DNA of 64,000 bases from Candidatus Heimdallarchaeum aukensis (lineage in GTDB: Archaea > Asgardarchaeota > Heimdallarchaeia > Heimdallarchaeales > Heimdallarchaeaceae). The notes below the pieces were generated by a model. It was not told where the DNA came from. It did not search any database and was given only the letters and a program-made list of their open reading frames with translations. Shown here one piece after another: positions 4,766 through 61,481 of this stretch. Where the stretch lies: positions 992,001 through 1,056,000 of the forward strand of contig CP084166.1 in the NCBI GenBank assembly GCA_021513695.1, given 5' to 3'. Numbering within the stretch: position 1 is the first letter of the stretch; every line of letters starts with the position of its first letter. Made by a program: the position numbers and the translations under genes.

Positions 4766-4912
4766 TTTTTTACTTTTTTTTAAAGGTAAATAGGATGATT
4801 CTCTTTTTCCGAAATTCGAAATTATAGGAAAAGGGGAAAAAAGAAGAGAAGAGGAAAAAAAGAAGAAGAAAGGAGAGGGGAGGAGAGAAGAGGAGTGGAG
4901 TGAAGATGAGGG

Positions 4913-4921
4913 TTTTAAATA
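4913..4921 (+). promoter_or_regulatory. Archaeal TATA box of the tnpB promoter
   Basis: ttttaaata lies about 30 bp upstream of the tnpB ATG (4951) and is preceded by a G-rich BRE-like stretch (gatgaggg). The same box, as ctataaaaacccc, sits upstream of the second tnpB. Confidence 0.4.
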
Positions 4922-4950
4922 GGGAAAAAAAGTAAGATAAATGAAAAAAA

Positions 4951-6208
4951 ATGAGGAAAAAGGTGTGGCGAACTGAGGAAATATGGGTGAAAGATTCGAT
5001 CACTCTAAAACAGTTAGCACACAAGGTAAAAAACTTGTATAATCAAGCAAATTACATTATTAAGTATCAGTTAAGAAGAAGTAAATATTTCACAAAAGAG
5101 TTTGAACTAATGAATATTTTAAGGTATCACCCCGACTTACACAGCTTTACCTGGTCATACGGCACAACAGACGATAAAGTTTCTATGTTTAGCGTGGAAA
5201 GGGTATTTTAGGTCTTTAGAAGAATGGAAAAAGGAACCAGAAAAGTTTAACGGTAAACCTCGTCCTCCAAGATATAAGAAGAAAGAGGGACTAGGTATAA
5301 TCTATTTTACTAACTCTCAAGTGAAAATTAAAGAAGAAAAAGAAAAAGAAAAGAAAAGTAAAGGTAAATTCTTTATCTCTTTTCCTAAACGTGTAGGACT
5401 AAAGATAGTTACAAGACTCGACCCTTCAACTAAAGTGAAGTTTGCCCGGCTCATACCTATGGGAACGAAGTTTAAATTAGAGATAGTTTACGAGAAAGAG
5501 ATAGAAGAGCTAAAAGAACGACCAGCAGAAAGAGTTTTAGCTCTTGTTCTGGGAGTGAATAACCTTGTAGCTGGTTTGACCACTATTCCTGGTGAAAAAG
5601 GCTTCCTGATAAATGGTCGGCCCATTAAAGCTGTTAATCAGTGGTTCAACAAACGTAAAGCAAAATTACAGTCAATCTATGACAGACAAGGGTTAACCAC
5701 TTGGGGAAGAAAAATGCTCACCCTCCAGTTAGAGCGAATGTGTAAAATAGCTGACTATTTCCATAAAGCAAGTAGAAAAATAGTAGACTACTGTTTAGAA
5801 AAAAACATTGATACAATAGTTATAGGTTATAACCCCCGATGGAAACAGAAGGTTGATATGGGTAAAAAAAATAACCAAAACTTCGTTTTTATCCCCTTCA
5901 AAACCCTCATTGATAAAATCACTTACAAAGCAGAAGAAAAAGGAATAAAAGTTATTCCTACCAAAGAATATTACACTTCTGTCTGCAGTTTCTTGGATAA
6001 TGAAGAGATAGCTTTTCACACTCATTATGCTGGTAAAAGGATCCACCGTGGACTGTTTATCAGTGCCCAAGGATTAAGAATTAACGCTGATATCAACTCT
6101 GCAGGTAATATCGGTCGCAAAGTATTCCCCACGTTATTCTCTGTTATGTCTAACTACGGGATAGTCTGGGGTGCCGTGGTTCACCCTGTCCGTTGGAAAA
6201 TAAGTTAG
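4951..6208 (+). pseudogene. tnpB: tnpB (IS605 OrfB / RNA-guided nuclease family), frameshifted and catalytically degenerate
   Basis: The N-terminal 86 aa (frame 1, 4951-5211) and the remainder (frame 2, open from 5123 to 6208) join as ...YHPDLHS|LPGHTAQQTIKFLCLAWKGYFRSLEEWKK..., which matches the TnpB region around the conserved ...lpsqsaQq...afk.ff... segment. A +1/-1 shift therefore lies near 5125-5150. The RuvC-I segment reads ALVLGVNNL where GIDLG is expected, so the Asp is lost. The RuvC-III segment NADINSAGNI is retained. Only one Cys remains in the zinc-finger region. Confidence 0.65.
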
Positions 6209-15573: not shown

Positions 15574-16323
15574 ATGAGGAAAATGGGTCATTATGTACCA
15601 AAAAGAAGAAAATTCATCGATCGTAGGAATTTAGTTCAAAATATAGTTTTAGGAGTAGTATTAACAGCATCGGTTGTATTAGGTTTTATTTCAGGAAATC
15701 CCCTTTTTAAAATAATCGGATTTATTATTATTGCAATACTCACGGGGACATTCTTCTCTGGAGTTATGATCCGCTTTTTGACAGGAAGAGGATATGCTAT
15801 AGCTAGTGCTATAAATGAACTATTGTATATTTTTGTAGCTATACCAATAATTGTGATGGCTGCGACATACTTACCTGTTAGTATATATCTAACCTTTTTC
15901 GGAACTCAATGGTCATCACAAATCTTGATTGGAATATTTTTTATTACTGGAATGTTAATGTTAGGTTCCATTCTCTATCTAATTAAAGGTCATCTTAGAG
16001 ATAAGAAAATGGGTTTATTTAGCTACATAGCCTATTTATTTGATTTTGAAAAAAGAGCTCAAGAAAGAATAAAACAAAAAGAAAGAGTGAAAAGAATTGA
16101 TGAATTCTATGCTGGATTTCATCAAATAGAATCTGCTGTAGCTGCTAAAATGGAAAAAAGAATGACTGGTTTCCAAGAGTTTGATTGGAAAGCAAGATTG
16201 AACGAGACTCCAGAATGGATGAAAGAACAAGAGCAGGAACAAGAGCAAGAGCAAGAGCAAGAACAAGAGCAGGAACAAGAGCAAGAGCAAGAGCAAGAAC
16301 AAGAGCAGGAACAAGAAAATTAG
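15574..16323 (+). CDS. Membrane protein with a C-terminal (Glu-Gln)n low-complexity tail
   Basis: Four or five TM helices are followed by a charged domain ending in EQ repeated about 30 times. Confidence 0.5.
   Translation: MRKMGHYVPKRRKFIDRRNLVQNIVLGVVLTASVVLGFISGNPLFKIIGFIIIAILTGTFFSGVMIRFLTGRGYAIASAINELLYIFVAIPIIVMAATYLPVSIYLTFFGTQWSSQILIGIFFITGMLMLGSILYLIKGHLRDKKMGLFSYIAYLFDFEKRAQERIKQKERVKRIDEFYAGFHQIESAVAAKMEKRMTGFQEFDWKARLNETPEWMKEQEQEQEQEQEQEQEQEQEQEQEQEQEQEQEN
16225..16314 (+). repeat. Hexanucleotide (GAR-CAR)n microsatellite that encodes the EQ tail
   Basis: gaacaagagcaggaacaagagcaagagcaa... repeats for about 90 nt. The antisense strand yields a spurious poly-Leu ORF (16036..16314). 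Confidence 0.8.
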
Positions 16324-16393
16324 ATATACTTAAGCTTAAAGCAGTTCTAAAAAAATAGTATAAAAATATACTTTATAAACTAAATTAATTTTT

Positions 16394-22122: not shown

Positions 22123-22207
22123 TTAAATTAAATAAAATATAAAATCACTTTTTTCTTTTTTTTTAATATTACTTCATTATTCATGAGTTGAAATTTTACT
22201 TAATTTC

Positions 22208-22412
22208 TTCAGGACTCTACCCAACCAGTCAACAAACATATCGAAAGTTGTGAGGACTGGGTTAAGAGAACATGAAAGACACAGTCTTAATTAAGTTCTC
22301 TAGGGGGTTCATCTCCTGATTCCGGGCACTCATCACTCCCACAGGGAAGACCGGGTGTCGTAGGAATGAAACCTACGTCTTTAAGCATCTAGCTCAAGAC
22401 ACTATATAAATG
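22208..22412. ncRNA. Candidate structured non-coding RNA (GC-rich island with several hairpins); class not assigned
   Basis: About 200 nt are near 50% GC inside a 470-bp intergenic gap in a ~30% GC genome. Hairpins include cgtagg-aatgaaa-cctacg, agagaac...gttctct and cagtc...gactg, plus the palindrome cttaattaag. Confidence 0.25.
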
Positions 22413-22593
22413 ATAATTGATTATATAAAGACAGCTGAAAAGTCTTGACACTCCCCCATATCGTGTAATCTTTCTAATAACTCCACAAACTAAAAATTTA
22501 GTTCTTTACGTAAAAAAGTATTTCATCTATATTTGTGTTAAGCAAAAATGGTTGATGAAACATATTCTTTATAAAAGTTAATGTGAAAGATAA

Positions 22594-30686: not shown

Positions 30687-31174
30687 TATATAATAATTAA
30701 ATCATACGAACTTAAAAAAGTGATTATTATCAAATTTATTTTGCAAAAAAAAGTAATTTCTATTATTCTTTATGCTAAAGGGTATTTGGAAATAAAACAT
30801 GCTTATTACACCCTATTCAAAAATTCAAACTAGTACTTAAAATAACTAAAATAATTTTAGTAAAAGTGAATTTAACATCTATCTAAATCTTAATAAAATT
30901 TTAACATTGTTTGAATTCGGTGGCAAAAAATGGGTGAATACGTTTGTCTACAAAGATTTTATGAATAATAAAGTATTCTCACTTAGCAGACCCACTAAAA
31001 AGCCACAGCAGTATTTTTCTAGCTACTTGGAGTTAATAGGTAATACACCTTTAGTTTTTTTGAATAAGGTGAGTAAAGCTATTAACCACGAACTCTATGA
31101 TTTACTTTTTTACGTAAAGTTTTTCGCGCTCTGTCTTGCAAGAGAGAAAACAAGTAAAAGTTTAATCTCTTGAA

Positions 31175-32995
31175 CTCAACCAAGCCATACAATGCTATGA
31201 AGAGGATGAGACAGACATCATACACGAATCGTGGGAATCATAAAGAAGAAAAGAACTAAAAACTCTTTTCTTCACTCCACGAGAGACAAAAAGAAAGAAA
31301 GATTTCCTCCTCCTACAGGAGAGAATTTGTCCTTTCGTTTTTGTCTACTGGGACTGCAACCAATGGCTGAGCCCTAGGCAAACAGTGAAATGGGTAGAAC
31401 TGTATCTTTGACCAGTGAGGTAATCAGTGATAGTGTTTCCTTGAGGACTGAAAAGAGCACCAAGGAACTTACGAGCGATATTCATTGCTCCTGTGAGGTC
31501 AGAGTGGAAAGTGTAATTGCAAGAAGAACAATGAACTAAACCTCTTACTGGACGGACAACTTTCCTTCCACAACGAGCACAGTGAGAAGATGTCCCTTTT
31601 TCCTCTATCGTTAATATTCGGTGAGGGTCAAAACCTCTTAATATTAGTGCCCGACGGAGAAGAGTAAGAACAAGGTAAAAATTCCACTGATGAAGTTTCC
31701 TGCGAAACTTACGAGTACTTTTACCTTTCTCTTTTCCTTTCTCCTCGCGAACATGTTTAGGGTAACCTACAACGACGAAAAGGTCATACATTCGCGCATA
31801 GGTCTCTATCGTCTGCACAACCTCACTTACAAATTGGTAAATATAGGCTCGTTTAACGTTTCTATATCTTCTTCGAAGAAGACTAAGAAAACGATAAACT
31901 TGATGTTTTTTACCCGACTGGTCGTTTAAAGCTGCTTTTCTCTGAAGACGGGAAAGTTTGACTTTATATCGATGGTTGACTCTATTCCACTGTTTGGTAT
32001 GCCAGAATTTTATCTCCTTACTTGTTAATTTCTTTTTAGGGGTTAGTAACACTCCTGCAGCAGGAATGTTTATCCCTAGATCTATTCCCAGCACAGCTGG
32101 GGGGAGAGAAGAAGAATTCTCTTCTTTAGGAGGATAAAAAGAAGAAGGAAGAACTCTTAGTTGGAAATACACCCACCATTCATGTGTAGAACGTTTATAT
32201 CTTAGTTCTAAACTTTTCACCCTCCCTTTTTTTAACTCTTTCTGGTGGAAAGTGCTCATCTCTAAAGGTAACCATAACTTCTGATGATAGGAGGTGTTTC
32301 TTCTCCACGTATCTAACGAGTCTCTTATCCCCACCCACCAACGAGTGAGAGTGTTATTCTTCTCTTTAGGTAAATGGACGAGAACGAACCTCTTTGCATT
32401 AATTAGTTGTCTTCTCACTCTCTTTATTGGAGGACGAGTAGAACTGGGTTTATAACCTTGTTCGTATAATTGCACAGCTATATCTCTACATTCTTGAAAT
32501 TCGTTGTGGGAACAATAAGGGAACATTTTCTTCAGGTCGTGAGGAACAGTCTTTCTTCTCTCTTCTTCTTTAACTTTTGAAGTCGTTAGCGTCAATTCAT
32601 CTAGTTTTCCTCTATGAACTCTTATTTTCCCTTTTTTAGTTTTAGCACATATTTTTCTTCTGTTGTGATGAATTATTCTCACATACTTCTCTATTATCCT
32701 CGTGTCTCTCCCCGTTATTCTCCTTAACCTTTCCTTTTTCCTCGTCGTCAACACCTCATTCTTTATTCTCACTTTCAAGGTTTTGACGACGTCCTCCACC
32801 ATTCTTTTCCTTCCTTCTTTTCTTTTTCTGTTTATTTTTTCTCTTGTTTTTTCTTCTTATCTTTTTTTATTCTACTTTTTTTCCCTATAAAAACCCCTCT
32901 CCTCTTTCTCCTCTCCTTTCTTCTCTTTTTTCTCTCCTTCTTCCTCAACAACTGTAAATTACGTGAAAAATAGACACATGGTGACACAGGAAAAA
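31175..32995 (-). mobile_element. IS200/IS605-family TnpB-only element: leader, tnpB and a 3' flank that may encode a guide RNA
   Basis: The upstream leader on the gene strand (32803-32990 on +) is purine-rich and carries ctataaaaacccc. That sequence is homologous to the leader of the first element (cttactttttttccctat..aaaaccc shared). The 3' flank at 31175-31345 shares tctttctttcttt and gtggagtgaaga with the first element. Confidence 0.55.
31345..32802 (-). CDS. tnpB: TnpB (IS605 OrfB-family RNA-guided nuclease homolog), apparently intact
   Basis: RuvC-I is AVLGIDLGINIPAAG, the zinc finger is HCARCGRKV...CSSCNYTF and RuvC-III is HSDLTGAMNIARKF. The RuvC-II position reads VVVGYPKHV, with no Glu at the canonical position. 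The other copy has the same change, so it may be a family feature. Confidence 0.75.
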   Translation of the reverse strand: MVEDVVKTLKVRIKNEVLTTRKKERLRRITGRDTRIIEKYVRIIHHNRRKICAKTKKGKIRVHRGKLDELTLTTSKVKEEERRKTVPHDLKKMFPYCSHNEFQECRDIAVQLYEQGYKPSSTRPPIKRVRRQLINAKRFVLVHLPKEKNNTLTRWWVGIRDSLDTWRRNTSYHQKLWLPLEMSTFHQKELKKGRVKSLELRYKRSTHEWWVYFQLRVLPSSFYPPKEENSSSLPPAVLGIDLGINIPAAGVLLTPKKKLTSKEIKFWHTKQWNRVNHRYKVKLSRLQRKAALNDQSGKKHQVYRFLSLLRRRYRNVKRAYIYQFVSEVVQTIETYARMYDLFVVVGYPKHVREEKGKEKGKSTRKFRRKLHQWNFYLVLTLLRRALILRGFDPHRILTIEEKGTSSHCARCGRKVVRPVRGLVHCSSCNYTFHSDLTGAMNIARKFLGALFSPQGNTITDYLTGQRYSSTHFTVCLGLSHWLQSQ

Positions 32996-33000
32996 TAAAA

Positions 33001-34553
33001 TGGAAATTTAAAACTGGGGGATCAATAAGAGCATCTCCAGCTCTAGGAGATCTTAACAATGATGGCTATCTGGATATAGTTATAGGGTCTTCTGATTCTT
33101 ATTACTATGCATTTAATGGAAGAACTAGGACAATCCTCTGGACACTCAAGACAGAACTAATAATAGGGGGAACTGCTCCAACATTGGCAGACGTTGATGG
33201 GGATAACGAACTAGATGTCCTACTTAATGGTAAAAATGTGTATCTTGTTGGAGGAAGAAAGGGCAATTTAATCTCTATTTATAATCAAAATGAAGAGGTT
33301 GGAACTTCTATCACTGTTGGTGATTTGGATAATGATGGCAGTTTTGAGATGATATATGGTTCCAAAAGTGGAAACGTTTTTTGTTATACGATTACTAATT
33401 CTGATAAAACAAGTTATAGGATCTATTGGCAGGGGGATGGTGGTGATTTCTTCAATTCTGGAAACAGTTTTACAATAGATAAAGATGGAGATACTGTTTC
33501 TACTTTCTCTGAAAAAATTATTGGAACAGACCCAGAAAAAAGGATACGGATGGAGATTTTCTTATAGATGGATATGAAATATCTGCTACTAAAACAGACC
33601 CCTTAGTTCAAGATTCAGATAATAATAATATCGGAGACCAGAATGAAGATTTTGATGGTGATGGGTTAACAAACCTAGAAGAATATAAGAAAAAAACAGA
33701 TCCTTTGAGTAGAGACACAGATGAAGATTTTATACCAGATAAAATTGATATTTTCCCAATTTTGTTTCCAGAAGGTTTAATTTATCTCTCTCTATTCTTT
33801 CTTTTATCAATATTAATAGTTTCTACAATAGTAAAAAAGAGAATAGAAAATAAAGGCGATAAAAATGAAAGTCTTATTCTTAAATTTAAAATGAAAAGAA
33901 ATCAAATATTATCAGAGATATCTTGGAAAGGCTCTTATAATAATTACAAAAGTGTTCATTTACAAGCTTTTAGATGGTTTGGAATTTTTGCTATTTCATC
34001 TGCAATAATGATTAATTTTATCATTTATCCACTTTTTAAAACAGAAATTGTTTACCATGATATTGTAAAAACAAGCTATTCTACAGTTATCTATGTTTTA
34101 ATTAATGTTATTTATTTTGCGTTATTTTATTTATTAGGTTCTGGTTTTTACTCGCTAGGGTTTTCAAGTAATGGAGTAACTTTTAGCTATGATTCTATTG
34201 CTACAAACTTGTTTCTTTCTTCTCTTATCATTTTAAGCATTTCTTTCGTAAAAGTATCAATAAACTTAATTTTACTTCCAATTTTAACTTATTTACTTAC
34301 ATCTGCTTTCATCACACTTTATAATATACGAAAGGAAAAGATTACTAATAGTAATAATCTCTTAAACTTTGTTTTCATCCTTTTTCCAATATCTTTTCTA
34401 TCTCTTTTATGGTATCAAACGCTTTCTTTCTATTTTGCTATTCCACAACAAATTTTGAGGATAATTTCTTTGATAACAGGAGTGTTAATGTTTCTTCTAG
34501 CACTAGAAATCTTTACATTATCTACTCTGAATTCTCGTGAAAAAACAAAATAA
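33001..34553 (+). pseudogene. FG-GAP repeat + thrombospondin-type-3-like (DxDxDG) repeat + polytopic membrane domain gene. It is interrupted by a frameshift in an A7 run and lacks an in-frame start next to the IS leader
   Basis: The frame is open from a stop at 32971 and reads WKFKTGGSIRASPALGDLNNDGYLDIVIGS... (FG-GAP). At cagaaaaaaggatacggatgg (about 33536-33556) the reading shifts. It then continues DTDGDFLIDGYEISATKTDPLVQDSDNNNIGDQNEDFDGDGLTNLEEYKKKTDPLSRDTDEDF... into the listed ORF 33705..34553, which has 7 or more TM helices. Confidence 0.5.
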
Positions 34554-34990
34554 AGAGCATTTGAAATCTAACAATTCTAGTACTCCTTTCTAATTTTTTT
34601 ATCTCACATAGATAATAGTTAGTTGTAATGTTTGAAAACAGGTTGTGAATAAAGTAATAATAGCTCCTCTGTCATTGATTATGCAATAAGTATAATCTTC
34701 CATATTCTTGACATTACATCTTATCTCTCAAATATGATTATCTATATGAACTCATTTCTTTAAACAAACTATCTTCATTTGCTTATTTTTGTAAATAGTA
34801 CATAATTTCCTATTATTAAGACAACAAAAATCTCCTAAAAAGTTCGGTAATACATGATTGAAAGAAGTCGATTGATGGAGAAATCCTGGTGATTAACTTC
34901 TTGAGAGATACTAATTAATTATTTTCGAGCAAATGCTCAAGAAAATGATTATTCTTCTTGGAACTCTTTAAACTACAAGACAGAGTAATT

Positions 34991-36031
34991 TTATGCTCTT
35001 TCACATTTATTTTTTTCATTATTTTCTACAATACATAGTTCTAGAAGTATATCATACGTTTTTATCATCTCTCTCATAGTTTTTAACATTATTGGGTAAA
35101 GACGCATAATACTATGATTCTTTGTATATTTATAATCTGAATGATAATTAGGATAACGCGAAGCACCAACATGTTTTTCCAAATTCATGCTTAAAATAAC
35201 TATATATGCAAACAGTAGTATAAGATAAAGATAACTTTCTATTTGTACTAACCAATCTTCTTTCTGAATTTGTGTGATAAATTCTTCTCTCAACATTCTT
35301 CGCTCATCAGTTTGCAATTTGATATTATATTCTTGTTCGATTGTTTGAATGACATAGTCTGTTATGCTAATGAACTCTTCTTTCACAATTTTATCAAAAT
35401 TTTCTTTTCTTATGGATTTTATTCCTTTCCTAAATAATGAAAACAGCTTGTTGTATTTAATTAATATTTCCTTTAATGTAGTGTGTTCAAGATACAGAGT
35501 TTCTTCTGATTTCCTTTTTTGCTCATAATCACTCAAATATTTATCAATTGCTTCTATAATGCTTAAAAATCCTTCTCTTTGGTTATCATTAGAATAATCA
35601 GCTAAAGATTCATAGAGATCTTTTAGTTTTTCGAAGAAGAATTTAGTAAAAGTATGTCCAACTTTTATAAGCCGTTCAGTTTGACACAGTCCAGTAAGTA
35701 GAAGTAGTGATTTTCCTAATTTCTCAACAGATTGTTGGAGGAAGAAAATAGACTGTGCATATAGTTTCTTGTGATATAGAATTTTTGAAGCTCTTAAATC
35801 CTCTTCAGCAGTATCTAACAGTCCTAAAGCTGATATTAAATCTCTCTTTTCTGGTGGGATCTCATACTGTGATCCATATTTTAATTGCCATATTAATTGC
35901 CTTTTGATATCTTCTATATCTGTTTCTTGTAATGCAATTTTGTCATTATTATCATTCATTAAATAGCACTGATGGTTAATATTTAAATAATTAATGGCAA
36001 CTATTATCATAATGCAATAAAAATCGAGCAT
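34991..36031 (-). CDS. HEPN-domain protein
   Basis: ASKILYHKKLYAQSIFFLQQSVEKLGKSLL is a HEPN N-terminal helix, and ERLIKVGH is an Rx5H motif. The likely true start is the internal MNDNNDK at about 35959. There is a C-terminal hydrophobic segment. Confidence 0.5.
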   Translation of the reverse strand: MLDFYCIMIIVAINYLNINHQCYLMNDNNDKIALQETDIEDIKRQLIWQLKYGSQYEIPPEKRDLISALGLLDTAEEDLRASKILYHKKLYAQSIFFLQQSVEKLGKSLLLLTGLCQTERLIKVGHTFTKFFFEKLKDLYESLADYSNDNQREGFLSIIEAIDKYLSDYEQKRKSEETLYLEHTTLKEILIKYNKLFSLFRKGIKSIRKENFDKIVKEEFISITDYVIQTIEQEYNIKLQTDERRMLREEFITQIQKEDWLVQIESYLYLILLFAYIVILSMNLEKHVGASRYPNYHSDYKYTKNHSIMRLYPIMLKTMREMIKTYDILLELCIVENNEKNKCERA

Positions 36032-36183
36032 CTGCTCTTTAAAATGAGAAACTATTTTATATTAAAAACTCTTAATTGGTTTTAAAACATGATAATTAAA
36101 GAAAAAAGAATAATTAAATCCTTCTATTTAACTATAAGGAGGAGTAAATAAACATAAAAAAATTGTGAGTAGAAGGGAAATAT

Positions 36184-37419
36184 ATGTCATTTAATTTTGA
36201 AGTTAAAAATACAATTGCATCCTTAAGGCAATCAAGGTTGAAGCTTGGCAATGTAGAAATAGAAACACCAAATTATATAATGACACATATTGAAACTAGA
36301 CGACTTACTACAGGGTATAATCTTGTTGGGAGTCGTGAGCCTAACCCAAAACTGAATGAATTAATTAGTGATCATATACCTGATAGATTAACTGCACAAA
36401 AAATATTTGAAAACTCCGATGAAATAGAAAAATTATGTAACAAGCTAGATAACTTGACTAAATCTGATCGGATGAATTTTGTTCAATTTCGTTTGAAGGC
36501 TGGAAATGAAATTAGCAAATATGAATTATGTCAAATTGTTAGGTTGCAGTCTGATATGAACAAATTTTCCATTATAACAATACCTGATCCTACTTGTTCA
36601 TATAATAACTCTTGGATTGATTCTATGGAAGCAGCTCTCTATGAGGCTAAGGTTTCACAAGAAGTTGGAACATCGGAACTATTTATGCCTACTGTTTCGC
36701 TTGCTCAGCCTTTATTGGATGTGGAAAAGAAAATTTCGTGGTTAATAGATAAGCAAGTTCCATCCATTGGATTAAGAGCACACGGGCCACATTTTCCAGC
36801 TACTTTGCACAAATCAACAAATCTGATTACACAATCAGATAATCCGATTTGGATTCATCTGTTTGACTTATCCAAAAAATATAAGAATGTGTCCCAACTG
36901 CATTTGGCACCTTTGACAAGTGTTGATACTATTTCCTTGAAAAAAAAACATGGGTATAGCAGCAGCAAGAAAAATATTATGGATGGTTTATTGCCAACAC
37001 CAGAGAATATATCTTTAGAACCAACTGCTAGGGAAATAGAAGAACAAAAGGTCAGAGAGATAAAGCGTAGTCAACGGTTTTTGTTTGAGCAATTAGCTTT
37101 AGGTTACATTTCTATAAATGAGCGGACTAAATGGATTGGTCATGAACTTTCTTGTACTTGTCCCATTTGTAAAAAGACAAAAGATATAGATACCTTTAGG
37201 ATTTATCTCTCAACACATGATAAAAACTCACTTCTACAAGTGCATGAATATACTGGTTTTAACCAGGAAATGTTGGCAATTAGAAAAAATATTAGGGATA
37301 ATGATATCTCAGAGTATTTTAGACAAAAAATATTAGTAAAACGACATAGACGCAAACTATCTAAAAGATATCCTGAGCTTGAAAGGTTTATTAATCCGCC
37401 TTTAGATAGTTACTTCTGA
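36184..37419 (+). CDS. Divergent tRNA-guanine transglycosylase (TGT) family protein (ArcTGT/DpdA-like)
   Basis: The N-terminus MSFNFEVKNTIASLRQSRLKLGNVEIETPNYIMT parallels archaeal TGT (FEIK..GR.G.L....IETP..MPV). Candidate catalytic Asp residues sit in QSDMNKF and HLFDLS. The zinc site is ELSCTCPICKKT...H, followed by LLQVHEY. About 100 aa of C-terminal extension are basic. Confidence 0.6.
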   Translation: MSFNFEVKNTIASLRQSRLKLGNVEIETPNYIMTHIETRRLTTGYNLVGSREPNPKLNELISDHIPDRLTAQKIFENSDEIEKLCNKLDNLTKSDRMNFVQFRLKAGNEISKYELCQIVRLQSDMNKFSIITIPDPTCSYNNSWIDSMEAALYEAKVSQEVGTSELFMPTVSLAQPLLDVEKKISWLIDKQVPSIGLRAHGPHFPATLHKSTNLITQSDNPIWIHLFDLSKKYKNVSQLHLAPLTSVDTISLKKKHGYSSSKKNIMDGLLPTPENISLEPTAREIEEQKVREIKRSQRFLFEQLALGYISINERTKWIGHELSCTCPICKKTKDIDTFRIYLSTHDKNSLLQVHEYTGFNQEMLAIRKNIRDNDISEYFRQKILVKRHRRKLSKRYPELERFINPPLDSYF

Positions 37420-37447
37420 GATATTTATCCAAGAAAAGGTGATATAA

Positions 37448-38059
37448 ATGAATCAAAAAGCGACAAAAAATATGTCGGAAGAAGAAAATAAAATGATAAA
37501 AAAATGGATCTATTTAATGTTAGCTGCAGATAACAATAGTTCAATCAAAGGAAAAGTTAGAATAACTAAAGAATTCTTTTTGATTACCAAGCAGTTAGCT
37601 CCTGAAGTATTTAAGGCAGCTCAATTCTATCCTTATCACTTTGGGCCTTATAGTACTCGTTTTGCTGTTTGTGTTAACGAACTGATTAAAAGTAATCATA
37701 TTAATATATTGTATAAAAGTGGAGATTATCATTATGAGTTGTCAAAAAAAGGTTTAGTTGAAGCTAAAAAATATTTGAAAACAATCCCTAAGAAAGAAAA
37801 ACAAGTAATTGATGATATTAAGAAAAAAAGTAAGTCTCAATCTTTAAAATCAATGTTAAAAGAAATTTACGAAAAATATCCTAAGTATACAGTTCGTTCT
37901 GTTATTAAAGCAGATCTTGATACTAAAAAAGTAAACTTAGATTCTGTAGAAAAAGTAGATGATAGTTCAGGGTTTGTTTCAAGTGATATGAAACATGAAC
38001 GTGACATCGTCTTGAAAGGTGAAGCTGCAAAAAGATTTCTAGAAATAATCTCAAAGTGA
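37448..38059 (+). CDS. Hypothetical protein, candidate antitoxin for the downstream GNAT toxin
   Basis: It ends 7 nt before the GNAT toxin. Its C-terminus ERDIVLKGEAAKRFLEIISK resembles the toxin-binding C-terminal helix of DUF1778 (TacA/AtaR) antitoxins. At 203 aa it is much longer than typical. Confidence 0.4.
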   Translation: MNQKATKNMSEEENKMIKKWIYLMLAADNNSSIKGKVRITKEFFLITKQLAPEVFKAAQFYPYHFGPYSTRFAVCVNELIKSNHINILYKSGDYHYELSKKGLVEAKKYLKTIPKKEKQVIDDIKKKSKSQSLKSMLKEIYEKYPKYTVRSVIKADLDTKKVNLDSVEKVDDSSGFVSSDMKHERDIVLKGEAAKRFLEIISK

Positions 38060-38066
38060 TACATCA

Positions 38067-38570
38067 ATGACTAGTCATGAAGTAGAGTATAAAATTGAGA
38101 AACTAAATATATCTCATACTCTATTAGACTTTGATTGTGGTGATGAAAACGTTAATGAGTATTTTAATCAGAGAAGCTATGAAGAAGTTGAATTAGGTAA
38201 TGCTCAAATTTATGTGTTTATACTTGTGAATACAAATGACCTCATAGGTTTCTATACGCTTTCAATGAAATCTGTTCGTTTTAACTATGAAGGAAGAGAA
38301 TATGATCAACCTGTGTGTTTGCTTGGGCAAATTGGAGTAAATAAAATTTTCCAAAATAAAGGTTGGGGAACAATATTAATTAAAGATGCAAAGAAGAGAT
38401 GTAAAAAAATCTCAGAAGATATTGGAAGCATTGGTTTATTATTGGAAACATATAAAGAAGAATTAGTGAACGGGTTTTTCAAGAAACTTGGTTTCGAATA
38501 TGTTGAACATCACAAAATGAAAAACCGAGGTACAAGATATAGATTGTTTTGCAAACATGAACATGAATAG
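38067..38570 (+). CDS. GNAT-family toxin of the AtaT/TacT/KacT type (aminoacyl-tRNA acetyltransferase toxin family)
   Basis: LLDFDCGDENVNEYFNQRSYEEVELGNAQIYVFILVNTNDLIGFYTLSMKSVRF, then LLGQIGVNKIFQNKGWGTILIKDA, then IGLLLETYKEELVNGFFKKLGFEYV. These align block by block with AtaT (F.CG.e.Ln.fL / vGyYtL / QGqGwG / LGF). Confidence 0.7.
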   Translation: MTSHEVEYKIEKLNISHTLLDFDCGDENVNEYFNQRSYEEVELGNAQIYVFILVNTNDLIGFYTLSMKSVRFNYEGREYDQPVCLLGQIGVNKIFQNKGWGTILIKDAKKRCKKISEDIGSIGLLLETYKEELVNGFFKKLGFEYVEHHKMKNRGTRYRLFCKHEHE

Positions 38571-38625
38571 AAAAAGGAGAAATGGATATAAAACAGCTTA
38601 CTCTATTTAAAGCTTAAAGCTATTT

Positions 38626-38666
38626 TTGAATATTATTCTTTACTTTTTTCTAGCTCTAATCCTCTC
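38626..38666. repeat. Copy A of a 41-bp dispersed repeat (IS/tnpB-leader-related)
   Basis: ttgaatattattctttacttttttctagctctaatcctctc differs from copy B at 41085-41125 by three transitions. The core tattctttacttttttc also appears in both tnpB leaders. Confidence 0.7.
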
Positions 38667-38901
38667 TTCTTGTTTAATTACTGTAAGTATAATTACTTGT
38701 TCGAGTGTAAGATTGTTGAAGTTCAGTTCAGTACCTAAATCATCCAAAAAAATAGTTATTTAATAGGAATTTATATTTAACTCGAAAAAATCCCATTTTT
38801 AATATTTCTTTATGAAAGTATTTTCAATAAACGGAAAGTTTGCTACAAGAACTCGAAGAGTTTTCTATTACTATTGCAATCCTTCTTTTTTAAAATGTAA
38901 T

Positions 38902-39354
38902 TTATTGTATAGAATCTATGAACCTCTTTAAATCCTCTTCTGGTAAATCAGTATATTTCTTATATCTCTTGAATTTTTTACTGAAGAATTTTATATCAAC
39001 ATAAATTTGTATTTTCTCTTTGCCTTCAATTTGTTTTCTGTCTGTTACAGGAAAAGTTGCCCAATATAACTTGTATTCTTTTGAATGCTTAAGTTCATAT
39101 TGTTGTTGTTTTGGTCTTATCTTTCCTTGATACTCAACACTATCAATTATCATTTTTATGTCCAACAGAAACATGAGTGTAGAAGCAGTTCCAGCATTAA
39201 TTATGTAAAGTCCCCATTCTTTTGCTTGTGGGTTGAATATTGGTCCAGATAAGTTTAGCGAAGCTCTTTTTGGTCTAAAGAAGGATAGGTATACTGTTAC
39301 AACTGACAGAAAAATAGATATTGTAGAGAATATTAATGAGACTACTTCTGTCAT
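38902..39354 (-). CDS. Small membrane-anchored hypothetical protein
   Basis: An N-terminal TM helix MTEVVSLIFSTISIFLSVVTVYLSFF, a second hydrophobic stretch, and a charged C-terminus. Confidence 0.4.
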   Translation of the reverse strand: MTEVVSLIFSTISIFLSVVTVYLSFFRPKRASLNLSGPIFNPQAKEWGLYIINAGTASTLMFLLDIKMIIDSVEYQGKIRPKQQQYELKHSKEYKLYWATFPVTDRKQIEGKEKIQIYVDIKFFSKKFKRYKKYTDLPEEDLKRFIDSIQ

Positions 39355-39589
39355 AAATACTAATACACATTATCAATTAATTAACAGTTCGGTATATTGT
39401 TTCACCCATGGCACATTCACCCCAAGATAAAATACTGAACCATTAGATGTTGGATCAATTGGTAAGGAGATCCTAAAGATTAAAGAGTAGTTTGATTTAG
39501 AGATTATTACTATAAATAATACTTATGTTGCTTTGTTTTGTAATGTTAAAAAACAAGTGATAAGCCAAATTTAAGGTTACTAAGTCTAA

Positions 39590-40933
39590 TTATTCCTCAT
39601 GAAGTAAAGGTGTTTCTAAAAGGACATTTGTTAAGTCGATATTGTTAGGGTTTATTTTTTTTGGATAAACAAAAGAGAAGTGGCAGACGTAAGATTTGTT
39701 GTTTCTTATTATTTTGATCCAAACATTTTCTGGTTTTTCCATTATTATTCTTAACATCCATGATGTATTTTCTTCTGATACTCTAAGCAAGGCATAAAGA
39801 GTTCTTTTTTTTAATTCTAGTGTCTTATACTTTTCGAATTTTTCTTTTAACTGTTCTGCGTTCCCCCAAAAAAGGTTGGGAAAAACTTTTTCATCTTTAT
39901 CAAATACTATTGTTATCTCTTTTATTTTATTGTACTCTGAAATATCTTTCAAGATTTCCTTCTTTTCATCAATAGGGATTCTTTGTTGAATACCTCTAGA
40001 TTTTCTTAAAATTTGATCGAGGAGAAACCATATTGAATTGTCCATATATTTAATAAACGAATTAATTTCCATTTTAAATGCAACTTCTGTTTTTTGTATT
40101 TCTACATTACCTTTTTTATTTATCCAACCGTTTATTTTAAAATAAGAAAAACGAGGATCGACATATTCGAAAGATTGTTTGGGTGGAAAGGTTTTTCCAT
40201 TTTTTCTTGCCAAAGTTATTGCATCTTCTATCCATAATTTGAAATTGGTATTTGCTGACCTTGCGGGAATTTTGTCAATAATAACCCATATCTCATCGTT
40301 ATTGAAATCCAGAACTTTTTTACCACTATGTGTAACAGTATTACGTAAGTATAGAAACACACTGAATGCAAGTGATGGATTGATATATTTATCTGAATAG
40401 GGCTCGTAATGTCTAATTAGTTCATCAAAAATACGTTCATACCTATATCGTTTTAATTCGGGAAGATTATTTAAATACGCTTCTGTGAATCTTGAAGTTA
40501 GTTCCAAAAGTTCCAGACCAGCTGAAACATATGTTTCAAAGAGACATATAAAAAGGAACTTTATAGTTGGTATTTTAGTCCAATCAAATCGTATTTGATA
40601 ATACTCTATTTGGTCTCTTACTAATTGGAAGTACGCAAGTCTATATTTAATGCTGTTTAATGTTTCAATATACCTTCCTTTTTTCACTAATTCATTAATA
40701 TGAAAAACTAGTAAACTGTAGTCTCTTGATTCGTTATGTGCTTCCAGATAGTATGAAAACATACTCAAAACGCCAAGACTTGTATCAAGAACATGCCGAG
40801 AAATACTAATTTCTTTTTTTTCTTTTTTTTCTTTTAACGAATTAAAAAACTCATATTCGTTAAGCAAAATTTTTAACAAAAGTTCATGAGATTCTTTACT
40901 TTCTATTTCTTGCTTATCCTTATTTTGATTCAT
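39590..40933 (-). CDS. Hypothetical 447-aa protein, no recognised domain
   Basis: A long ORF whose 5' end faces repeat copy B and its pyrimidine-rich leader-like tract. Confidence 0.45.
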   Translation of the reverse strand: MNQNKDKQEIESKESHELLLKILLNEYEFFNSLKEKKEKKEISISRHVLDTSLGVLSMFSYYLEAHNESRDYSLLVFHINELVKKGRYIETLNSIKYRLAYFQLVRDQIEYYQIRFDWTKIPTIKFLFICLFETYVSAGLELLELTSRFTEAYLNNLPELKRYRYERIFDELIRHYEPYSDKYINPSLAFSVFLYLRNTVTHSGKKVLDFNNDEIWVIIDKIPARSANTNFKLWIEDAITLARKNGKTFPPKQSFEYVDPRFSYFKINGWINKKGNVEIQKTEVAFKMEINSFIKYMDNSIWFLLDQILRKSRGIQQRIPIDEKKEILKDISEYNKIKEITIVFDKDEKVFPNLFWGNAEQLKEKFEKYKTLELKKRTLYALLRVSEENTSWMLRIIMEKPENVWIKIIRNNKSYVCHFSFVYPKKINPNNIDLTNVLLETPLLHEE

Positions 40934-41084
40934 TTGTTATTAATATTATTTTATAACAAAATAAAAAAGTTTAGTTAAATATTACTGTGCAATTCTTCCT
41001 CTATTTTGATAAATAAATGAACTAGAATAATTTTCTTTCCAAGAATAAACTGCCTTTAAGGATAGTTAATAAGTAGTTAAAGGT

Positions 41085-41280
41085 TTGAATATTATCCTTT
41101 ACTTTTTTCCAGCTCTAACCCTCTCCCCTCTCCCATCTTTACAATCCTTCTTTCCCCTGAAATTATTTTTTTTGTTTCCTTTTTCTATATTCTCTTTTCT
41201 TTCTAACCAACCTTATACTCTTTTTCTTTACCTTTGTTCTTGTTATTGCTTTTGTTACTGTTTTTAGTCCTAGTTCTGTA
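41085..41280. repeat. Copy B of the 41-bp repeat, followed by a pyrimidine-rich leader-like tract
   Basis: ttgaatattatcctttacttttttccagctctaaccctctc is followed by about 150 nt of C/T-rich low complexity, like the leader region 5' of tnpB-2. Confidence 0.65.
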
Positions 41281-41500
41281 CTATTAGTTCAGTCTCTTTT
41301 TTAGGATAATCTGTGGATAGTAATTCTTCAAGAAATTAGAGGAAAAATATGAAATCAATAATAAACTTTCTCTAAATTGTCTTAAGGTCTTCTTCTAGTT
41401 ATAACCTCCTTACAAGAAGATGCTTTACTTTGCAACAAAATGAAAAATAAACTAAAGAAACTATTCATAGGGTTTAAATACTTATTTCTCGTATAGGCTA

Positions 41501-59680: not shown

Positions 59681-60247
59681 TTACCACTGATTAATCACTT
59701 TCTCAGCAAAACCTAATAATTTGTCTACTTTAACCTCTGTTCCATCATCTAAAATGACTTTTCCAGTAAAATATCCAAAAACTTGATGTTGAACTGATTT
59801 AAAAATCAGCAAGTTTACTTTTGAATTTCTGTCTATAATGGGTTCGAAATCCATTTCAAATCTTCCATCATTGCTTGTGAATTTCCAAGGTTTCAAGTAA
59901 TCAGATTCATCTATGTGAAAAGTAATCTGATCAAGTTTGTGTCCTTTGTTATTGTAATAGAAAATGTTCTCTGTTGCTGCAGAAGTGTCACCAAAACCAT
60001 ATCCTATATTAAAACCTACAGAAACACCATCTTGTATTCCTGAAGCTGAACCCCAGTACCAGATGTCTTTATAAGGCCAAACTCCCCTTCCCCAATCCAA
60101 TACCGCAAAACTATTCTCTTTTTTAAAGCTATACTCTTTATTACCATATTTTACTGTCCCTTCAGTAGGCATACAGTTAATTTTTTGATTATAGTAGAAG
60201 CATTTAGGTTTATTTTTCCAAGGAGTGGCGATAACCATTGTATCCAT
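59681..60247 (-). CDS. Truncated tandem paralog (C-terminal 188 aa) of the downstream 343-aa protein
   Basis: MDTMVIATPWKNKPKCFYYNQKINCMPTEG... is nearly identical to residues ~156-343 of ORF 60450..61481. Confidence 0.5.
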   Translation of the reverse strand: MDTMVIATPWKNKPKCFYYNQKINCMPTEGTVKYGNKEYSFKKENSFAVLDWGRGVWPYKDIWYWGSASGIQDGVSVGFNIGYGFGDTSAATENIFYYNNKGHKLDQITFHIDESDYLKPWKFTSNDGRFEMDFEPIIDRNSKVNLLIFKSVQHQVFGYFTGKVILDDGTEVKVDKLLGFAEKVINQW

Positions 60248-60449: not shown

Positions 60450-61481
60450 TTACCATCGATTCATCACTTTCTCAGCAAATCCTAATAGTTTGTTTATTTT
60501 TACCTCTTTTCCATTGTCTAAGATTACTTTTCCTGTAAAATAACCAAAAACTTGGTGTTGTACTGATTTGAATATGAGAAGATTTACTTTTGAATTTCGA
60601 TCAATTATTGGCTCAAAATCCATTTCAAACCGTTCATCGTTACTAGTGAATTTCCAAGGCTTAAGGTAATCTGTTTCATCTATATGAAAAGTAACTTGAT
60701 CGAGTTTGTGTCCTTGATTATTGTAATAGAAAATATTTTCTGTAGCTGCAGAAGTATCACCAAACCCATAACCTATATTGAAGCCTACAGGAACCCCATC
60801 TTGTATTCCTGAAGCTGACCCCCAATACCAAACATCTTGGTATGGCCAAACTCCTCTACCCCAATCAAGAACTGCAAAACTGTTGTTTTTCTCAAAAATG
60901 TATTCTTTATCGCCATATTTTACTTTTCCTTCTGTAGGCATACAATTTATTTTCTGATTATAATAGAAACATTTAGGCTTATTTTTCCACGGAGTGGCAA
61001 TTACCATAGTATCCATATTTGGTTCTTGATGAAGTAAAAGTTCTCCTTTGATATCTGATTTTTTAGTAAAATTGGGAAAATTAAATCTAATTATCCTTTG
61101 TTCATTCTTCTTTTCTATATTTATACTCAGTTTTTTGCCTTTATACTTAATATCACCAAAATCAGAAGAAAGAGGTAAGTTTGTTCTACCTCTTGTGAAT
61201 AACTTCATTTCTTCTCCTGTAACAAAAGTTTTTTTCTTAAAATCTAACCAGACTATATTATATAATCCCATTATCCCTAAATCAGCTATAGTAAAGGTGA
61301 TCGCATAATCTGGATGAATAACAGCATAATAATCCCATTCTTTTATTCTGAACCATTTTTTCCTAATTTTTTCTCTATTGTATTTTAAATAAGGTTTCCT
61401 TGACCAACCTTTGTAGTTCAAGTGGCCTTTTTCATTTAGTAATTCTCCTTCTGAAATTATCTCATTTTGAGTAGACATCAC
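60450..61481 (-). CDS. Hypothetical 343-aa protein (W/Y/G-rich beta-type domain), full-length copy
   Basis: Contains WGRGVWPYQDVWYWGSASGIQDGVPVGFNIGYGFGDTSAA. No assigned family. Confidence 0.5.
   Translation of the reverse strand: MMSTQNEIISEGELLNEKGHLNYKGWSRKPYLKYNREKIRKKWFRIKEWDYYAVIHPDYAITFTIADLGIMGLYNIVWLDFKKKTFVTGEEMKLFTRGRTNLPLSSDFGDIKYKGKKLSINIEKKNEQRIIRFNFPNFTKKSDIKGELLLHQEPNMDTMVIATPWKNKPKCFYYNQKINCMPTEGKVKYGDKEYIFEKNNSFAVLDWGRGVWPYQDVWYWGSASGIQDGVPVGFNIGYGFGDTSAATENIFYYNNQGHKLDQVTFHIDETDYLKPWKFTSNDERFEMDFEPIIDRNSKVNLLIFKSVQHQVFGYFTGKVILDNGKEVKINKLLGFAEKVMNRW

Follow-up and report, generated by a model that had tools for sequence, protein, structure and literature searches.

A 42-nt direct repeat at the ends of a two-gene module in a strain-variable defence island of Candidatus Heimdallarchaeum aukensis, unrelated to the local tnpB insertion sequences

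The stretch of DNA analysed (64 kb, hereafter the window) contains a strain-variable defence island, delimited by comparison with the JGI strain contigs L004 and L014 and by gene content. Both contigs match the window up to position 34662 and again from 41345, with 98.5-99.75% identity, and carry different genes in between; the island is a mosaic between strains, its content being replaced wholesale in relatives. It encodes a HEPN protein, a TGT-like protein, a PDC-M19A-like protein with a GNAT protein, and the 447-aa and 150-aa proteins, after which a type II restriction-modification system follows. The defence genes of the region comprise HinfI-like type II restriction-modification, an NsnB/AriA/GajA-like ATPase, the PDC-M19A-like and GNAT proteins, and the HEPN proteins. 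The features of the locus are the following:

34663-41344, no strand assigned: strain-variable defence island that holds the repeat
38625-38666, no strand assigned: copy A of the 42-nt direct repeat (pairwise alignment and shuffles)
38902-39354, minus strand: 150-aa gene, encoding a membrane protein with a hydrophobic N-terminus
39590-40933, minus strand: 447-aa gene, encoding a HEPN-fold protein with an invariant Rx4H (R197, H202)
40891-40934, no strand assigned: possible degenerate third copy (C), overlapping the first 14 codons of the 447-aa gene
41084-41125, no strand assigned: copy B of the 42-nt direct repeat (pairwise alignment)
41126-41280, plus strand: pyrimidine-rich tract adjoining copy B (79% Y)

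The 447-aa protein represents a new family of HEPN-fold proteins. A search for a phage or plasmid origin of its gene returned no matches, and the 61-aa ORF of L014, considered as a homologue, was rejected. The 150-aa gene is truncated in H. endolithica at 39178 by a MITE, and its homologue in contig L004 (46% identical) has no 447-aa homologue beside it. Since homologues of the two proteins occur separately (L020, L004), a conserved 447-aa/150-aa gene pair was rejected. The H. aukensis paralogue P0003 was looked up and is not on record.

Copies A and B are identical at 39 of 42 positions and lie 2459 nt apart from start to start. The three mismatches (38637/41096, 38651/41110 and 38660/41119) are each a T in copy A and a C in copy B. 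The pair of direct repeats with three T/C differences described in the initial annotation is thus confirmed, its length being 42 nt, one base more than the 41 bp given there. The Smith-Waterman score of A versus B is 69, compared with means of 18-24 and maxima of 29-46 for dinucleotide shuffles; it was reached by 0/300 and 0/1000 shuffles, and blastn-short returns E = 2e-10. Just two copies of the 42-mer are present within the 64-kb window. Comparison of the flanks of A and B on both strands gave nothing above shuffles, the edges being sharp, and a longer repeat unit was rejected on these grounds. Furthermore, folding revealed no shared RNA structure or hairpin, with predicted folds that differ between the copies, and Rfam gave no match at the gathering threshold nor at E <= 1, and a structured RNA was rejected. 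The window contains no tRNAs. A bacterial promoter/terminator scan was uninformative and applies the wrong model to an archaeon. Collectively, the 42-nt repeat is genuine, far beyond chance, sharply bounded, unstructured and unrelated to the insertion sequences (IS) discussed below.

Further copies were sought in public data with the 22-mer core CTTTACTTTTTTCYAGCTCTAA by exact matching, which misses diverged copies and does not return those of the window. In GTDB representative genomes and JGI metagenomes, a search space outside which the source genome lies, exact matching gave two chance matches only, in a Campylobacterota MAG and in a groundwater contig, both with unrelated flanks. No exact match was found in IMG/VR.

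Both copies lie in non-coding DNA. Copy A is located in the convergent spacer between the GNAT stop codon (38570, plus strand) and the stop codon of the 150-aa gene (38902, minus strand), starting 55 nt past the former. Copy B occupies the divergent spacer that separates the ATG of the 447-aa gene (40933, minus strand) from that of the methylase gene (41501/41504, plus strand). As proposed earlier, copy B lies upstream of the 5′ end of the 447-aa gene, at 151 nt from its ATG and on the opposite strand, and the pair brackets two ORFs: exactly two complete genes, those of the 447-aa and 150-aa proteins, lie between A and B together with the promoter-proximal region that belongs to them. The pyrimidine-rich tract said to continue from copy B is present as well, with 79% Y over 41126-41280, and opens with CCCTCTC x 2.9. 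Stretches of 155 nt that reach 80% purine/pyrimidine skew occur only three times in the 64-kb window, namely the B tract and both tnpB leaders. The likeness claimed between the B tract and the tnpB-2 leader holds for composition only, the alignment being not above shuffles and a profile match being absent. A homology of the B tract with the pyrimidine tract 5′ of the L014 methylase was likewise rejected (57/300 and 84/500 block shuffles for the whole tracts); a TTTCCAGCYCTA..CC core in the two tracts, with p ~0.01 over 24 nt, is a lead only.

The candidate third copy at 40891-40934 is a marginal one and is regarded as a lead. In a post-hoc search, the score of A versus this candidate was reached by 9/1000 shuffles, and that of A versus its orthologous remnant in L004, also post hoc, by 1/1000. 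The comparison of B with the candidate is not significant against shuffles, and MAFFT fails to reproduce the alignment.

The comparison with H. endolithica, whose genome-typical identity to H. aukensis is 90-94%, places copy A at a change in divergence. Copy A is kept in that species with one change (C>T at 38650) and is conserved no better than its surroundings; neither H. endolithica nor the JGI strain contigs carry copy B. H. endolithica thus retains copy A plus some of the module, and in the JGI strain the island is replaced as a whole. Divergence amounts to 4/1772 (0.23%) over 36878-38649 and to 16/529 (3.0%) from 38650 on (Fisher p = 1e-7), and the maximum-likelihood change-point is at 38648, with a 95% support interval of 38578-38698 that includes copy A. 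The same tendency is seen when intergenic DNA alone is counted (1/266 to the left of the change-point vs 8/252 to the right, p = 0.018), and third codon positions left of A are also low in divergence (6/784). Within the single GNAT/150-aa spacer the values are 0/79 vs 8/252 (p = 0.21), so that the change-point is inseparable from the end of the GNAT gene. Copy A coincides with the border of two segments that differ in evolutionary age, a border which cannot be told apart from that gene end. The two species, otherwise 6-10% apart, share 99.8% identity over the segment left of A, which points to recent exchange; this accords with the view, put forward for these genomes, of defence systems as mobile elements (PMC8813620).

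The relatives show breakpoints at window positions 34662, 39178, 40892, 41314 and 41345; none of the rearrangement breakpoints of the three related strains falls at A or B. Short pieces of the island are found again in relatives: the spacer piece 36088-36131 recurs in L004 (43/44), the piece 41314-41447 in L007 (86%), and a 5′ remnant of the 447-aa gene is present in L004. The recurrence of short pieces in unrelated island contexts indicates that exchange happens in spacers.

The initial annotation had derived the repeat from the two tnpB insertion sequences of the window, for which the relevant features are:

4795-4950, plus strand: tnpB-1 IS (frameshifted), its leader with left end, purine tract and then the GAGGGTTTTAAATAGGG promoter, unrelated to A/B
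31097-32977, minus strand: tnpB-2 IS of the IS200/IS605 type, with its leader at 32803-32977, unrelated to A/B

The core TATTCYTTACTTTTTTC, said to lie upstream of both tnpB genes, has no match at 4920-4950 (minus strand) or 32868-32895 (plus strand) with up to three mismatches allowed, and the four copies of the motif counted for the window fail in pattern search, shuffle-calibrated alignment, BLASTN and profile HMM. The Smith-Waterman scores of A or B against either tnpB leader are reached by 10-29% of shuffles (29-86/300), and BLASTN of copy A against the tnpB-1 leader gives E = 0.59, on par with about 20 noise matches. The word common to A/B and the leaders, TTACTTTTTT, occurs 11 times in the window vs 2.6 expected and is thus a generally over-represented word. 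An nhmmer leader profile, made from five tnpB-2 IS copies of independent origin, detects the leader of the second, unrelated IS family (tnpB-1) at E = 3.5e-6; run without filters and up to E <= 100, it has no match at copy A, copy B or the pyrimidine tract. The two IS elements, taken in full as BLASTN queries, give no match at A or B at E <= 1, and the terminal hairpin of the IS200/IS605 type is absent from both copies (no ACGT palindrome, no shared fold). Alignment of the five tnpB-2 IS copies identifies the tnpB leader as internal IS sequence, ordered as left-end hairpin, purine tract, archaeal BRE/TATA promoter and purine 5′UTR. Its conserved motif, GGGTTTTWAWATAGGG, is an ordinary archaeal BRE/TATA box, and a promoter of the same type (GGGTTTAAATA, 31 nt before the ATG) precedes the methylase gene, which comes close to the generic promoter consensus that the initial annotation had named as counting against its own proposal. 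At the edge of the tnpB-2 IS, collinearity with H. endolithica resumes at 32978, and one Logan contig breaks at 32870; the Logan contigs are unbroken through A and B and broken at the IS and at the MITE.

The view that A, B and the pyrimidine tract are decayed solo left-end/promoter modules of a tnpB IS appears, from these sequence comparisons, largely refuted and is highly improbable. In its favour, the B tract is one of three strongly skewed tracts in the window, the other two being IS leaders; it can be aligned collinearly with the tnpB-2 leader over 84 nt at ~70% identity; and solo IS fragments and a MITE are present in the lineage. The score of this alignment is, however, reached by 29/300 shuffles, and the 42-mer does not stand opposite the TATA motif with which it had been paired. 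The resemblance to IS200/IS605 elements (TnpB, IS1341-type; background in PMC8612924 and 10.1101/2023.03.14.532601) extends to the strand-skewed composition of the B tract and to the common word AAAAAAGTAA, and the family is active in the region, represented by two tnpB IS, a 342-nt MITE (22185-22526) and, in L004, a solo right end. In contrast, subterminal TTTACGTAA hairpins are missing from A and B, neither BLAST nor the profile shows similarity to the family, and the two copies are direct repeats, which the family does not make. An IS leader/promoter module copied without tnpB, be it a solo end, a MITE-like remnant or a recruited promoter, is thus unsupported by alignment, BLASTN or profile; A and B are not derived from TnpB insertion sequences. 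The main value of the analysis is negative in this sense, as the TnpB IS have here not seeded promoter-only copies.

A regulatory role, with the 42-mer kept twice as a cis-regulatory unit, is also unlikely. As a plus-strand archaeal core promoter, TTTGAATA at positions 1-8 would place the predicted start ~31 nt downstream, inside the repeat; the alternative function is that of an oligo-T terminator. Copy A would then either terminate the PDC-M19A-like/GNAT operon or give rise to an antisense RNA that covers the 150-aa and 447-aa genes, and copy B would initiate a CU-rich RNA towards the restriction-modification genes. Both copies open with TTTGAATA, one mismatch from TTTAWATA, and both contain a T6 run; copy A lies just past the GNAT stop, where an archaeal oligo-T terminator is expected, and its GAATATTATTC reads as a 5-1-5 palindrome. 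Typically, a TATA box stands 25-31 nt upstream of the ATG in genes of the window, which makes 42 nt about the length of a core promoter with its start site. However, a one-mismatch TATA occurs every ~33 nt in these spacers, and the match to TTTGAATA is therefore not significant, remaining at the background level of AT-rich DNA. Downstream of the predicted transcription start there is no start codon, and the position suggests no gene to drive. The convergent setting of A and the divergent one of B make it difficult to name a single role for both; upstream of B there is no plus-strand gene to terminate, the 447-aa and methylase genes have their own TATA boxes near the ATG, and the ordinary conservation of copy A in H. 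endolithica also argues against this role. A coding function is scarcely credible. The repeat would encode either the N-termini of a pair of small hydrophobic peptides (MNIILYFF..., from a TTG start), as 45-aa and 60-aa ORFs begin inside the repeats, or the C-terminus of a lost minus-strand gene (GLELEKSK-stop), a frame in which 2/3 of the A/B differences appear synonymous. The peptides are wholly divergent past residue 14, that of B being translated low-complexity sequence; in the plus frame 2/3 of the A/B differences are non-synonymous, and between species the A ORF has one synonymous and two non-synonymous changes. The minus-strand frame is shut by stop codons a few codons upstream. Both coding readings were rejected.

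The explanation favoured here, held with somewhat less than even confidence, is that A and B are duplicated junction sequence left by modular recombination. One short non-coding sequence would occur twice, at the ends of a 2.46-kb module (447-aa and 150-aa genes, both on the minus strand), and we infer that the duplication arose by insertion of this module. The intergenic sequence would have been duplicated when the module joined the island via a short shared sequence (Campbell-type), or through an equivalent modular exchange, and the copies would persist as scars, possibly as substrates for further exchange. In favour of this reading stand the defence-gene content of the island and its replacement in relatives, the bracketing of two complete genes in non-coding DNA, the step in divergence at copy A and the recurrence of short spacer pieces. 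The arrangement resembles the attL/attR sites of Campbell-type islets: a direct repeat of ~40 bp with sharp edges surrounds accessory genes in a strain-variable island, near-identical copies lie at both ends, and one of them (A) is at the boundary of segments differing in divergence. Unlike attL/attR, it has no integrase, no tRNA or gene-3′-end target, three mismatches between the copies and no observed empty site or circular form, and the two genes form no conserved unit elsewhere. The insert consists of the genes for the 447-aa HEPN-fold and 150-aa proteins only, with no recombinase, and no integrase or transposase other than tnpB is found among the window ORFs scanned, which counts against a junction. 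The separate occurrence of the two families, which makes the pair no conserved mobile unit, is a further observation on that side, as are the position of the breakpoints in relatives, away from A and B, and the lack of an empty site; with two copies only, family behaviour cannot be shown. The mobilised cassette of the initial annotation is at most a possible reading: the pair brackets two ORFs in a strain-variable island, and A lies at the divergence change-point. An empty site (a single 42-mer between the GNAT and methylase genes) was looked for in related strains and found in none of the contigs with an identical GNAT or methylase gene, and neither a target-site duplication nor a recombinase was detected. 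A neutral relic of an older and longer duplication, unconnected with the arrival of the module, is quite unlikely. The 7% divergence between A and B means that the duplication is not recent, the T/C nature of all three differences, the next 13-20 nt, alignable as mostly T/C transitions, and the CCCTCTC slippage array in which B ends hint at a longer unit, and a weak third copy is perhaps present at 40891-40934. Decay should nevertheless be gradual, whereas the flanks have no residual similarity on either side, and the putative extension falls in low-complexity pyrimidine sequence. Given a significant repeat with abrupt ends of similarity, a defined junction fits better than a decayed long duplication.

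It is improbable that A and B are an active att-like or attC-like site at which a recombinase encoded elsewhere moves the defence cassette. A repeat of this length with sharp edges around a discrete gene set in a variable island would suit such a site, and PMC9668308 reports an enrichment of integrons and of integrase-less attC clusters among Asgard archaea; the short sites around ORFs of unknown function, in a variable array of an Asgard genome, recall these clusters. Unlike attC sites, however, A and B show no hairpin or inverted-repeat symmetry, no imperfect-palindrome fold and, as read from the sequence, no conserved GTTRRRY/RYYYAAC (R′/R″) cores. IntI is missing, no tyrosine recombinase integrase is present among the window ORFs scanned, the array has no more than two sites, three mismatches apart, and the bracketed genes carry their own promoters. 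The absence of the 22-mer core, two chance matches aside, from the exact search of GTDB representatives, JGI metagenomes and IMG/VR, made outside the source genome, also counts against such a site.

Conserved boundary (linker) sequences are found at the module junctions of mosaic phage genomes and of defence islands, where exchange proceeds by short homology. The junction reading shares with these linkers a short conserved non-coding sequence between functional modules, and the pieces 36088-36131 and 41314-41447 recur beside unrelated genes in relatives; it differs from them in having two copies only and no exchange breakpoint seen inside the 42-mer. A broader proposal, to which little probability is attached, is that boundary sequences of ~42 nt such as A and B are recombination sites that swap defence modules in Asgard islands, and it extends to other spacer pieces recurring beside unrelated genes in relatives. 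Exchange would then occur without an element-encoded integrase, through recombination at short homologies or with a recombinase supplied in trans, and the sites would form a cassette system functionally like the integron, built differently. At present the repeat amounts to a minor structural feature of a single variable defence island; should the junction reading hold, it would be one more example of immunity-module shuffling among close Heimdallarchaeum genomes. The by-products of the analysis are more useful than the repeat itself: besides the HEPN-fold family, they include an IS200/IS605 family defined with exact ends, promoter and target site, and a 342-nt MITE that is active and for which an empty site is documented.

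Repeat family D6, returned by a repeat search of the window, consists of two 42-nt direct copies, A (38625-38666) and B (41084-41125), which are 93% identical and lie 2459 nt apart from start to start. They differ at three positions, each a T in A and a C in B (38637/41096, 38651/41110 and 38660/41119). Their local alignment score of 69 compares with a mean of 18-24 for dinucleotide shuffles, which reach this value in 0/300 and 0/1000 cases, and blastn-short gives E = 2e-10. Since no comparison of the flanks (left and right, in every combination and on both strands) scores above shuffles, the similarity ends abruptly. No further copy occurs in 130 kb of related loci. An exact search for the 22-nt core in GTDB representative genomes, JGI metagenomes and IMG/VR yields no relevant match; such scans miss diverged copies, and the collections did not include the source genome (the window's own copies were not returned). 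The Logan contigs of five samples are continuous across A and B but broken at the IS and at a MITE, which argues against high-copy near-identical relatives of the 42-mer. Repeats shorter than 100 bp lie outside the catalogue of the H. aukensis genome paper, in which the 42-nt repeat is unmentioned (PMC8813620). As leads, a possible degenerate third copy overlaps codons 1-14 of the 447-aa gene situated between A and B, and the 13-20 nt past the repeat are alignable between the copies, mostly through T/C transitions, with a CCCTCTC slippage array adjacent in B.

The initial annotation suggested that A and B derive from an IS leader module copied without tnpB, on the basis of a core shared with the sequences upstream (leaders) of the two tnpB genes. 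The elements concerned are as follows.

tnpB-1: ATG 4951 to 6208, + strand, frameshift near 5200
tnpB-2: 31345-32802, - strand, 485 aa, Cas12f1-like TNB domain
tnpB-2 IS: 31097-32977, - strand, exact anatomy from the window and loci L006, L015, L016 and L017

The frameshift probably makes tnpB-1 a pseudogene; its leader can still be recognised as akin to the tnpB-2 family, which is multicopy in Heimdallarchaeum (homologue clusters of 18 and 31 members). The upstream alignment comprises the window copies and four from independent sites (L006 and L015 in H. endolithica CP084167.1, L016 and L017). Flanking DNA diverges directly 5' of CAT/G, past which all copies have the order G..TCTATTTTTTACGTAATTTACAATTGTTGAGGAAG left end with hairpin, GA-rich tract, GGGGTTTTTATAGGGAAAAAAAGTAGAA, A-rich purine tract and ATG, which places the tnpB leader inside the IS. 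The motif conserved in this leader is an archaeal BRE/TATA box; in the window, GGGTTTAAATA lies 31 nt upstream of the methylase ATG, and roughly a dozen further genes show a TATA box between -25 and -31. The family inserts 3' of a CAT or GAT trinucleotide and terminates in TCAT, the hairpins of both left and right ends are based on TTTACGTAA, and the internal BRE/TATA lies 85-90 nt 5' of the ATG within a ~175-nt purine-only stretch.

An origin of A and B from such elements is rejected, as four tests fail to relate them to the leaders. The proposed core pattern (up to 3 mismatches) has no match at the tnpB leader sites claimed for it, and alignments of A or B with either leader score no higher than 10-29% of shuffles, whereas tnpB-1 against tnpB-2 leader beats all shuffles. 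BLASTN queries with either complete IS return no match at A or B (E <= 1). An nhmmer profile of five tnpB-2-family leaders recovers the tnpB-1 leader (E = 3.5e-6) and, with filters off and E <= 100, gives no match at 38625-38666 or 41084-41300. The word TTACTTTTTT, common to A/B and the leaders, has 11 occurrences across the window (2.6 expected), scattered over many unrelated sites. Thus the repeat pair itself stands and the four-copy motif does not. The pyrimidine-rich tract reported after B was accurately described and is unusual, but it resembles a tnpB leader in composition only: 41126-41280, directly after copy B, is 79% pyrimidine, and only three 155-nt stretches in the window have a purine/pyrimidine skew of at least 80%, namely this tract and both tnpB leaders. 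Separately, L004 (JGI strain) carries a 139-nt solo 3' end of the tnpB-2 IS (13347-13484, 88% identical to window 31103-31241) between two Gtr1/RagA genes that abut in the window (29462/29463). This fragment is the right end, where omega-RNA would be expected; solo IS ends therefore occur in the lineage, yet as right ends, not leaders.

The genes flanking the repeat form a defence island, in a window whose Gtr1/RagA- and Arf-type GTPases fit an Asgard archaeon.

34991-36031: HEPN protein
TGT-like protein
PDC-M19A-like protein and GNAT
Two genes bracketed by A and B: 447-aa HEPN-fold protein (39590..40933, - strand) and 150-aa protein (38902..39354, - strand)
Type II methylase and HinfI-like endonuclease
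NsnB/AriA/GajA-like ATPase

The 447-aa protein is K9W45_04240 of Candidatus Heimdallarchaeum aukensis (3.08-Mb genome), and the 150-aa protein has a hydrophobic N-terminus. Within the 447-aa gene, Logan contigs of three samples all end in a 35-nt stretch (39847-39882) near C5/A6 homopolymers; in one sample an A/T-run indel around codon 37-40, upstream of this stretch, splits the gene (41-aa product P0132). Either the strains are heterogeneous here or the homopolymers were misassembled.

JGI strain contigs L004 and L014 are 98.5-99.75% identical to the window up to 34662 and from 41345, with a different gene set between. L004 retains a 64-nt remnant of the 447-aa gene start and promoter, and has, at another position and in the other orientation, a homologue with 46% identity to the 150-aa gene. 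H. endolithica (L007) is collinear with window 32978-39178 without the tnpB-2 IS. Copy A is present there and differs by a single C>T change. A 385-nt MITE interrupts the 150-aa gene of this species at 39178 and is followed by a piece resembling 41314-41447; neither copy B nor the 447-aa gene is present. None of the breakpoints in these contigs falls within A or B. Divergence from H. endolithica changes along the window as follows.

33278-34777: 6-10%
34778-36877: about 1.5%
36878-38649: 0.23% (4/1772)
38650-39178: 3.0% (16/529), the first difference falling within copy A

The maximum-likelihood change-point is 38648 (support interval 38578-38698; Fisher p = 1e-7). Coding constraint could lie behind part of this contrast; even so, intergenic DNA alone gives 1/266 on the left and 8/252 on the right (p = 0.018), and few third codon positions differ on the left (6/784). 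Within the single spacer holding copy A the difference is not significant (0/79 vs 8/252, p = 0.21), so the boundary is placed at or just left of copy A rather than pinned to it. The HEPN/TGT-like/PDC-M19A-like/GNAT block (34778-38649) is 98.5-99.8% identical between the two species, against 90-94% for neighbouring and other shared regions, which suggests a recent interspecies exchange of this defence block.

The evidence best supports a reading of A and B as one short spacer sequence in duplicate, marking the junctions of a two-gene module; the surrounding island would be the product of repeated exchanges in the spacers between genes. Two other spacer pieces behave similarly. One, of 44 nt (CATGATAATTAAAGAAAAAAGAATAATTAAATCCTTCTATT; window 36088-36131, L004 3129-3172), is 43/44 identical in two strains and lies ~55 nt upstream of unrelated ATGs, those of a 411-aa TGT-like gene (window) and a 316-aa gene (L004). 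The other, 41314-41447, comprises 134 nt upstream of the methylase promoter and recurs in H. endolithica (L007 9483-9616, 86% identity) beside the MITE and a different gene; JGI strain identity starts inside it, at 41345 (L014 from 1035), and it looks like a recurrent junction zone. The simplest origin would be insertion of the two-gene module through a short shared sequence, which would leave sharp-edged direct repeats, and we infer that the 42-mer was duplicated in this way. The related proposal of a mobilised cassette is at most a possibility: the pair does bracket two genes, but no related contig compared holds an empty site. Around the bracket, the sequence shows neither a target-site duplication nor a terminal inverted repeat, and no integrase or TnpA occurs among the window ORFs scanned. 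Alternatively, the 42-mer could be regulatory, as a core promoter on the + strand with TTTGAATA at its start, or as an oligo-T terminator of the GNAT operon. Folding finds no RNA or DNA structure shared by A and B, and the 42-mer has no Rfam match, nearby tRNA or convincing ORF. Short repeats at the junctions of mosaic genomic islands are a known kind of feature, of which the pair is a fresh example.

Several other repeats were noted in the window and in related contigs. A 342-nt MITE with IS200/IS605-type ends (GAGTTGAAATTTTACTTAATTTC ... TTTACGTAAAAAAGTATTTCAT) is inserted 3' of TTCAT at 22185-22526, where Logan contigs break; the orthologous H. endolithica site is empty, with a single TTCAT. 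Two other copies (82% identity) occur in that species, one truncating the 150-aa gene and one inverted 5 kb away (MITE-related coordinates L007 1883-1887, 9106-9490 and 14572-14955). Upstream of the methylase in L014, an inverted pair of AGCCCTACC(T)CCCCC (345-367 and 872-895, ~515 nt apart) encloses tandem GGAACTTTA repeats, possibly a further small element. The 249-aa ORF at 15574-16323 contains a tandem array of ~9 units of 12 nt (AAGAACAAGAGC-like; 16211-16330), intragenic repeats of this kind being noted in the genome paper (PMC8813620). Finally, a partial tandem gene duplication is indicated by two adjacent DUF2804 genes (59681-60247 and 60450-61481, - strand), the first a C-terminal half copy, that match each other over 300 nt with 83% identity (repeat D2).
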